NCBI RefSeq assembly: GCF_048403405.1
Contig: NZ_CP183129.1
DNA from: Escherichia coli
GTDB lineage: Bacteria > Pseudomonadota > Gammaproteobacteria > Enterobacterales > Enterobacteriaceae
Strand: one strand, 5' to 3'
DNA length: 64,000 nt
Shown here: in pieces, positions 28,296 through 31,200 of the stretch
How the letters are laid out: each line of letters starts with the position of its first letter
Position numbering within the stretch: position 1 is the first letter of the stretch
Made by a program: the position numbers

Positions 28296-31200
28296 TCAGC
28301 AACAGCGCACACCAGGTGGCGCTCATGCCGGAACGTCGCCAGCGGAACAGACGGTGATGAAAACCGTAATAATGCATCAGACGACCAGCAAGCAAAACGA
28401 TGCCGCAAATATGCACCATCCAGGTTTCTGCGCCATTCATTTCCATAAACAGCATCAACACAATCGCGATGGGAATATATTCCACCGCGTTACCATGAAT
28501 GCGAATAGCGCTTTGCAGTTCGCTAAAACCGCCGTCGCCATAGGCAACGCGGTACTGCATTCGCAGGCGAACGACATCAAAAGAGAACTTCATTAATAAC
28601 AACGCACTTAAAACGGCATATAGCGCGCTTACCATACAAACTCCCTTTAAAATGGCCGATGGCACCTGTCTATGATAGGTGGCAAATTCAGAAAAGAGAA
28701 GATTGCTGTGGAATAGCCGGAACTGCTCCGATCTCTGGAAGCGTTTTACGTAAGTCTTCCCACAGGGTATGTACCAGTTCCGGGGCCTGGGCAATATCTG
28801 GCGTATGTAAAAAAAGATAAGGCGTAGTGGTCTGATGCCACTGCGCTAATTTTTGTAACCAGACCTGAAATAATTCCCGGTTTTGCGTCATATCATCACT
28901 ACCGATAAAACGGATCAGCGGATTTGTCGCCGTCAGTACAGCATGTACCGGAACTTTAGGTTTTTTTCGTTGAGCGTCGCGAATAGCTTCACTGTGTGGA
29001 CGTGCTGCATGAACCGGGCGGCTGTCTAAAATCACCCGATTAACGCCGCGCTGATGTAAACCGCGATTAAGCGTTTGCTCCTCTTCCCCTTTGGCGAAAA
29101 ACTGTGGATGGCGGACTTCCACACCATAATTAAATTCGCCGGGAAGGGAATCGAGAAAATGCCAAAGCGCAGGCAGATCCCGTGGGCCAAATGTGGCAGG
29201 CAGTTGCAGCCAGTATTGCCCAATGCGCGGCGCTAACGGTGACATGCGGGTCAAAAATTCAGTCACTAAATCATCGCAATGCCGTAATGCTGCCTGATGC
29301 GAAATGGTCGCCGGAAACTTAAAACAGAAGCGGAAGTCATCTGTGGTCTGCTCACGCCAGCGCAGGACAACCTCGGGTTTGGGCAGGGCGTATAGCGTGG
29401 TGTTGCCCTCCACACAGTTAACATGACGGGTATTAAGGATTAACTTACTGATTTTAATAAGCCTCTGGTGTCACTTTGGTGACTATGGGGCATCATTGGG
29501 ACATAATCTGTCAGCTTCTGATTCAGCATTGCGATCTGTTCTGCATTGCTGTCAGTCATCCATGCTCCGTATACATTGAATACCATCTGGGCACTTGCAT
29601 GGCCCATCTGGCTGGCAATGAAGCTTGGGTTTGCTCCGGCAGATAATGACCAGCACGCATAAGTGTGTCGTGACTGGTATGCCTTTCGATGCCTGATCCC
29701 TGCACGCTTAATGGCTGTTTCCCATGAGTCACCTACAGAATCGACTTTGTAGACAAAACCTACCTGTTCGCTTTTTCTAACCACTTGAGGGTTAAACACG
29801 AAAGTACATTCATGGTTCACTGAACGTCCATATTCACGTAGTTGCACCTTGATGTTGTACTGCTTACCCAGTCTTGTCATTTCAGCCTGATTTTTCAGGA
29901 CACTGATAGCGGGCTGGATAAGGTGCACAACCCTGTTTGTGCTTGCTTCAGTTTTCGGTAGAGTGAACTCACCAAGTTTCGTATAATTGCGCCTGATGGT
30001 AATTGTTCCTGCCTTCAGATCGATATCTTCCCAGGCCAGGGAGACCAGTTCACCGTGACGCATTCCTGTGTACACAGCCAATGACCACAGGTTTTTCGTC
30101 TGCTGATGTCGGCAAGCATCTATCAGGCGAATAAATTCGTCACGAGTTAGCGGATCTGGCTCTGCCCTGGCTCTTTTAAGAGGCTTAATTCCCTGGAAGG
30201 GATTTGCTTCTAAGTAACCGTGATCTGCAGCAAACTGAAACATTCCAGCGATTGTCGTCATGTAATAATTTACAGTAACGACGCTCCGTCCTTTTGCTGC
30301 TGCTTTGTTTTTCGTTGAATTCTGATACCCGGTCAGCAAATCTTTCCTGATATACAGCAATTCCTCTTTGGTTACCGATGACACCAGTCTACTGCCTCCA
30401 ATTTTCGGAACCATCGTTCTTGCAACGGATTCATAGCGATTGAATGCATTTGCAGAGATTTCCATTCGTTTCAGATCCAGCCACTTTTCTTCAAGTTCCT
30501 TCACCGTAATTTCTTTTTTACTTACCCCAAAAGCCTGAAGGTTGGGGGAGTCAGGGAACTGTGCAGCATAATCAAAGCTTCCTGTGCGGATGGCAAAACA
30601 TACTGATGTCCGCAGTTCCCCGGCGATCTTCCTGTTCTTGGCAGTGTCAGGGACACCAAGATTTTCCCTGACACGTTTACCTTTAAAATTAAACCAGATG
30701 CGTAATGTGCCGCCGTGGTTTTCGACGCCTGTTGGATATTTGACTTTATCCATCGATACCTCCAGACGCCCAAGAGCGATACGAGCTTACATATTTCATG
30801 ATATTAAATCACCTGGGTTGTTTGTTTTTCATTGAGGCGACCCAGGCATCTATTGCTTTTCTGTTATACATACATTCACTGGAAGGCTTTGGATTACCGT
30901 CTGGTGATACGTGAATATACTCTCTTCCAACCATCCAGCATTCTTTCCGGGCCCGAAGAATTGTGCCTGGTTTGAGCCCGGTAATTGCGATAAGAACGCT
31001 TTCACAAACCCATTCATTGGGAGCCAGTTGAATCACATTGCCCATGTATTACCTCACACAACACTCAGCCCACGGCAGTGGCACCACACTTCAAACATTC
31101 GCTTCACAACTTCACGACAGTAGAAGCCGTCAACATCTCGCGTCAGGTCATAGCGATTGCAGTAACGCTGGTGGACCCATCGTTCAAATGCTTTATTCAT

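Follow-up and report, generated by a model that had tools for sequence, protein, structure and literature searches.

We found that the 64,000-nucleotide (nt) stretch of the Escherichia coli contig NZ_CP183129.1 analyzed here (hereafter the window) passes from host DNA into a lambdoid prophage within the gene yecE, and that positions 29411-29433 are almost certainly the attL site of a prophage that lacks Shiga toxin (Stx) genes and shares the integration type of phages phiP27 and PhiR49_2. The att core, CACACAGTTAA, occupies 29411-29421 and is equivalent to the 11-bp core CACGCAGTTAA of phiP27, whose positions were taken from its GenBank annotation: record AJ298298 starts at the window equivalent of 29411, and both its attL (1-11) and its attR (42565-42575) read CACGCAGTTAA. 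The original prediction had also placed the left junction of the prophage inside yecE, and this was confirmed by a truncated YecE frame, by the integrase gene adjoining it and by uninterrupted alleles elsewhere. However, the break itself had been set at 29413/29414, which proved to be only the first mismatch to strain K-12; sequence identical to a host allele continues to 29421. Judged from these alignments, the true junction is eight bases further to the right, with 29422 as the first phage-only base.

The host side of the junction is clear. On the minus strand, the window contains cmoB, cmoA and yecN, followed by a YecE frame that ends at 28688 and is open from this stop codon to the junction; torZ is also present. 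The order in K-12 is yecD-yecE-yecN-cmoA-cmoB, and the stop codon of yecD overlaps the start of yecE. The host-derived 3' part of yecE (28688-29421, minus strand) equals nt 86-819 of the K-12 gene, stop codon included, with 97.4% identity, and the YecE equivalog model NF007637 matched the truncated frame over profile positions 21-272 of 272 (492.7 bits). As had been predicted, the N-terminal coding region is missing: neither yecD nor nt 1-73 of K-12 yecE had a blastn match anywhere in the 64-kb window. An attR site, a second piece of yecE and a direct repeat of the junction were also sought in the window, and none was found.

Comparison with K-12 base by base explains where the two placements of the junction part. 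Identity stops at 29413, the window has A where K-12 has G at 29414, and 29415-29421 (CAGTTAA) is the same in both. The next 12 positions, 29422-29433, form the start of the phage DNA on the P' side (CATGACGGGTAT), yet they still agree with yecE (AGTGGCGGGCAT) at 8 of 12 positions and in frame, and the blastn alignment of the K-12 region accordingly ends at K-12 position 5469, which is window position 29433. The same P' stretch occurs in phiP27 and, in a variant form, in phage CharmingMan. It holds the yecE frame open, with NTRHVNCVE in place of the YARHFNCVE of YecE and with three synonymous changes among its nucleotide differences. Thus, the view that the sequence becomes unrelated after 29413 does not hold.

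When the window was compared with the uninterrupted yecE of strain 7/2, which carries A at 29414, the two were identical through 29421 and first differed at 29422. Comparison with unoccupied alleles, which had been proposed as a check, therefore bears out the interruption (yecE is intact in both K-12 and strain 7/2, and most genomes have an uninterrupted allele) but moves the break to 29421/29422. The single-nucleotide polymorphism (SNP) at 29414 is synonymous (TGT/TGC, Cys31 of YecE). Genome comparisons show that the A is a host polymorphism and not the start of the phage, because, in addition to the identity with strain 7/2, uninterrupted yecE with A was present in 1321 of 5426 complete E. 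coli genomes (detected with a 42-nt synthetic uninterrupted attB query, for which seeding was possible only where the A is present), and because the flank haplotype of the window (G29381/T29393) followed by A and the normal yecE continuation matched 167 uninterrupted genomes exactly (76/76), as against no uninterrupted genome with the same haplotype and G. The attL haplotype of the window was likewise found in no genome with G and in at least five with A. The queries for attL (42 nt with A or G, and the exact count over 76 nt) were confounded, as uninterrupted attB shares 28-52 nt with them as well as a similar B' side, and only the listed full-length exact matches and the zero result for G were used from them.

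All four att sites could be assembled for this integration system. The attB of strain 7/2 reads GCCCTC CAC A CAGTTAA AGTGGCGGGCAT, and the attL of the window GCCCTC CAC A CAGTTAA CATGACGGGTAT. In strains SCU-482 and ECO_2_R, attR reads CCGTAT CAC G CAGTTAA AGTGGCGGGCAT, with a core equal to CACGCAGTTAA, and the attP rebuilt from attR and attL is CCGTAT CAC G CAGTTAA CATGACGGGTAT, essentially equal to that rebuilt from phiP27. The attL and attR cores are thus identical at 10 of 11 positions overall and at 7 of 7 within CAGTTAA. A contiguous attP is available in the deposited genome of CharmingMan, where CCGCGT CAC G CAGTTGA AATGACGGGCGT lies beside the integrase gene in the arrangement P arm-CACGCAGTT-P' arm; the integrase region of CharmingMan is 80.6% identical to the window, and its attP belongs to a related phage and not to this one.

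The nearest complete genome, ECO_2_R, is 99.9% identical to the window over 27000-40000, identical over 29300-29899 and shows 100% identity for the final 2256 nt. Its attR (...AAATTCCGTAT CAC G CAGTTAA AGTGGCGGGCATAC...) is located at the window equivalent of about 70945 and is followed by a 105-nt yecE 5' pseudogene and yecD; the two cores of the prophage should therefore be about 41.5 kb apart, with the right junction about 6.9 kb past the end of the window. This agrees with the expectation that the core and the displaced 5' part of yecE would be found beyond position 64000. A core repeat beside the displaced yecE part and yecD is present in both ECO_2_R and SCU-482. A direct repeat shared with the other end, which had been expected at 29414-29440, hence does exist in relatives, but it is the 11-bp core at 29411-29421, which straddles 29414.

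The enzyme expected to act on these sites is encoded next to them. A lambda-type tyrosine integrase of 437 amino acids (29440-30753, minus strand) contains an Arm-DNA-bind_2 domain (PF12167, residues 7-70, 2.4e-23) and a phage integrase catalytic domain (PF00589, residues 202-395, 1.2e-17), and matched the integrase family phrog_1 (2e-86). Arm-binding and catalytic domains in one protein identify it as a heterobivalent tyrosine recombinase. Its stop codon (29440-29442) was correctly noted beforehand as lying close to the junction and is 18 nt from the att core. The integrase region shares 100% of its nucleotides with PhiR49_2 and 94.9% with phiP27. An excisionase of 78 amino acids (30809-31045, minus strand; phrog_539, 5.1e-40) is annotated as such in SCU-482, phiP27 and PhiR49_2.

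These observations suggest how the junction arose. The lambda-type integrase would have recombined phage attP with an attB inside codons 29-32 of yecE, so that the sequence up to 29414 would derive from the host, 29415-29421 would be shared by attP and attB, and all sequence from 29422 onward would be phage. Strand exchange most likely took place within CAGTTAA (29415-29421), because attL carries the host A and attR the phage-type G on its left, because the B' and P' arms first differ at 29422 on its right, and because attB is symmetric around it. Overlaps of lambda Int-type recombinases are 6-8 bp long, and 7 bp is typical of lambda-type integrases. In uninterrupted attB, GCCCTCCAC-N9-GTGGCGGGC forms an inverted repeat matching at 8 of 9 positions, with CAGTTAA centered in the 9-nt spacer (read by eye), which is the pattern expected for two core-type Int-binding sites. 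Thus, GCCCTCCAC (29405-29413) may represent the host core-type site B, and positions 29423-29431, within the P' side, the putative core-type site C'. An inverted-repeat tool found nothing in attL, where the core-type sites are too imperfect. In lambda-type systems, the same integrase binds both core sites and a likeness between C' and B' is expected; by analogy, the yecE-like P' stretch could be explained by one integrase having to bind both.

Candidates for the sites bound by the N-terminal domain of the integrase were also recognized. The motif TGGG[GA]CA[TA] occurs six times in the rebuilt attP of 600 bp, every copy in the same orientation (0.14 copies expected per 600 bp), at -176, -165, -145 and -135 in the P arm and at +75 and +86 in the P' arm, and these positions are kept in the attP sites of phiP27 and CharmingMan. 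The two P' copies, TGGGGCAT (29486-29493) and TGGGACAT (29497-29504), both on the plus strand, are 11 nt apart and fall inside the 3' coding region of int. On this pattern, the six copies are good candidates for arm-type sites. The P-arm cluster is located in the attR locus of SCU-482 (L003, about 20678-20730) with copies about 10-11 nt apart, and none of these candidate sites appears to be annotated in the records consulted.

If this scheme is right, attR in the genome from which the window derives would read ...AAATTCCGTATCAC[G]CAGTTAAAGTGGCGGGCATAC..., with yecE nt 1-85 and yecD coming after it, and excision would yield an attP of the form P arm-CACGCAGTTAA-CATGACGGG and a restored attB, CCTCCACACAGTTAAAGTGG. 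Clean 42-nt queries detected attR with G in 220 genomes and with A in 14. Among the matches listed, SCU-482, AR_0372 and ECO_2_R combine A in attL with G in attR, and FORC_069, NCCP15648 and O104:H4 strains have G at both ends, and these pairs agree with the model.

On the other hand, several points weigh against this interpretation. The terminal repeat was seen in relatives, albeit ones that are 99.9-100% identical where they overlap the window, and attR lies outside the window itself. At least 14 genomes carry A in attR, one of them strain Combat2C1, whose attL has A as well; this would mean that there are attP alleles of the A type or that the exchanged segment sometimes takes in 29414. The 7-bp interval hangs on a single SNP and on the assumption that the incoming attP carried G, and the lysogens with the haplotype of the window may stem from few integration events.

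A junction exactly at 29413/29414, with A as the phage allele and a shared core reduced to CAC or lying to the right of 29414, would fit the loss of identity at 29413 with G-bearing K-12, and A in the attR of some prophages suggests that an A-type attP may exist. We nevertheless consider this placement highly improbable. The A is common in uninterrupted yecE, and the flank haplotype of the window was found with A alone (167 versus 0), whereas G is carried by three attP sites (those of phiP27, SCU-482 and CharmingMan, the second reconstructed and the third contiguous) and by attR of the nearest relative, ECO_2_R. Moreover, a 3-bp core between unlike left flanks (TAT versus CTC) is implausible as the exchange region of a tyrosine recombinase. 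It is somewhat less improbable, although still unlikely, that the prophage is a decayed remnant fixed in yecE and its attL a scar that no longer works in recombination. Several side-tail-fibre genes near the right end of the ECO_2_R and SCU-482 prophages are annotated as incomplete or frameshifted, and the same junction has been inherited across many genomes. However, defects in tail fibres would leave excision unaffected, int and xis are open over their full length, with an int region identical to that of the deposited phage PhiR49_2, relatives have intact cores in attL and attR, and the large open reading frames (ORFs) of the window, from the immunity region through to the tail genes, are uninterrupted and follow the order of genes annotated as intact.

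The in-frame likeness of the P' side to yecE raises another question, namely whether the phage sequence at 29422-29458 rebuilds an expressed and functional YecE with a phage-encoded N-terminus. The frame is open, three of the P' differences are synonymous, and the RefSeq pipeline PGAP lists the interrupted gene in lysogen relatives as an intact 256-amino-acid DUF72 protein (WP_050483776.1). But the annotated start is an ATT codon, upstream of GTG 29413 the yecE-derived frame contains no in-frame ATG, GTG or TTG, the first 20 positions of the YecE family profile are missing, and a likeness of C' to B' would be expected anyway of core sites bound by the same integrase. A rebuilt YecE thus seems very unlikely. 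An equally slight chance may be given to the broader idea that the P' imitation of yecE codons 25-32 lets lysogens express an N-terminally replaced YecE or, alternatively, that readthrough from int alters expression of the tRNA-modification genes yecN-cmoA-cmoB downstream. If either were true, the prophage would affect host physiology. A scan for promoters and terminators around the junction found no more than in shuffled sequences.

We return to attL inside a disrupted yecE. Insertion has taken nt 1-85 away and parted the rest of the gene from yecD, so that the first 85-96 nt would remain beside yecD at attR, about 41.5 kb off, and a start-less remainder would lie downstream of int. It is most likely that yecE has been inactivated in this way, and the intact-gene call by PGAP is probably an annotation artefact that masks the disruption. 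In the window, the ATT start used for WP_050483776.1 corresponds to 29456-29458 on the minus strand, in phage DNA overlapping the 3' end of int; the protein is annotated at 20089-20859 and 1288-2058 of two relatives' loci (L002 and L010, respectively).

The window covers the left 34.6 kb or so of the approximately 41.5-kb prophage (29422-64000) and leaves it inside the tail-tip gene J. This lambdoid element contains immunity and replication genes, Q, three tRNA genes and lysis genes; its terminase is of the P27 family, its head of the HK97 type and its tail of the lambda type. It is collinear with the prophage of SCU-482 (98-99%) and, in the late region, with PhiR49_2. Three segments (31603-32983, 38289-38796 and 39590-39718) are not common with SCU-482, the first of them with ORFs of 314 and 171 amino acids, in keeping with the mosaicism usual in the early region of lambdoid phages. 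Six iteron-like repeats with 15-nt spacing (TCAAAATCTGACnCG) at 40353-40475, inside an ORF (40065-41006) at the position of a replication initiator, are probably the phage replication origin. The tRNA genes, Met/Ile-like (CAT), Arg (TCG) and Arg (TCT), occupy 45230-45479, between a Q-like ORF (44365-44760) and the lysis genes, which begin about 340 nt further on, with an ORF at the holin position at 45822. The slot between the tRNA and lysis genes is without a toxin gene, and the annotation of the collinear SCU-482 prophage lists no stx. A Shiga-toxin-converting phage was considered and rejected, given the lack of stx, the tRNA-holin gap of only about 340 nt and the limitation of phiP27 similarity to 29411-31284 and 44892-45517.

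The feature is already known in kind and in locus. The same yecE-integrase junction was present in 490 of 5426 complete E. coli genomes (9%). Integration of phiP27 in yecE is cited in an earlier paper (PMC9751135), and Nakamura et al. (2021; PMC8112680) reported that yecE of O145:H28 harbors Stx1a, Stx2a and Stx2d phages as well as non-Stx ones, so that yecE is a published site for Stx1a, Stx2a, Stx2d, Stx2e and non-Stx phages. Our additions are small: the boundary has been corrected, the exchange has been placed in CAGTTAA by means of the SNP, and candidates for core-type and arm-type sites have been proposed. Beyond right annotation, the significance of the finding is slight. Annotation should end the host sequence at the 11-bp core (29411-29421) and take 29422 as the first phage base, instead of placing the prophage boundary at the K-12 mismatch, and automatic calls of truncated yecE as intact with an ATT start are probably wrong. 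Occupation of yecE by a non-Stx phage is relevant to insertion-site typing by polymerase chain reaction and to the availability of the site for incoming Stx phages. In addition, the natural A/G SNP beside CAGTTAA could serve as a cheap marker of the exchange point of this integrase family.

Among known phages, phiP27 (Stx2e; AJ298298/NC_003356) occupies the same position in yecE and shares with the window the 11-bp core, the host SNP being the sole difference between CACGCAGTTAA and CACACAGTTAA, as well as the P' arm, the int-xis module (94.9% in the integrase region) and the tRNA cluster downstream of Q. Their likeness is nevertheless confined to two stretches, one of about 1.9 kb at the left end and another, of about 0.6 kb, around the tRNA genes. 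phiP27 has stx2e after the tRNA genes and a contractile-tail module (sheath and baseplate), whereas stx is absent from the prophage in the window, whose tail genes (tape measure, L, K, I and J) are of the lambda type. PhiR49_2 (PV340570, from ECOR13) is also similar to the window, with 100% identity in the integrase region and 95-98% in the late region, but differs in the early region over about 31.5-43.4 kb of the window; a literature search for PhiR49_2 and ECOR13 yielded nothing relevant. The yecE prophages of ECO_2_R, KE40 and SCU-482 are close relatives, of which ECO_2_R has an identical attL and 99.9% identity over 13 kb and SCU-482 differs in the three short segments mentioned above. 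In Combat2C1 (L008, NZ_CP019243.1, 675500-725400), the same yecE site is occupied by another lambdoid prophage, which has the int-xis module in common with the window; its genes include those for a subtilase-family AB5 toxin binding subunit and for a scabin-related ADP-ribosyltransferase, as well as a copy of ompT.

The 21-bp att sequence GTCATGCAGTTAAAGTGGCGG ('attB-in-PP_1') reported from ompW prophages and derived from a stretch of yecE (PMC8112680) matches TCCACGCAGTTAAAGTGGCGG, which spans the core of the window; the yecE phages of Nakamura et al. use the same locus and have a longer B'-side identity (21 bp) than the phage described here. Finally, the system resembles that of lambda in its heterobivalent integrase with N-terminal arm-binding and catalytic domains, in the adjacent xis, in a short common core that has an imperfect inverted core-type site on either side and in repeated arm-type motifs on both arms, the sites of the window being predicted ones. 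It differs from lambda in that the target is a protein-coding gene instead of the intergenic gal-bio region, in that the core sequence is another one, and in that the Pfam family of its arm-binding domain, PF12167, is not the one found in lambda.

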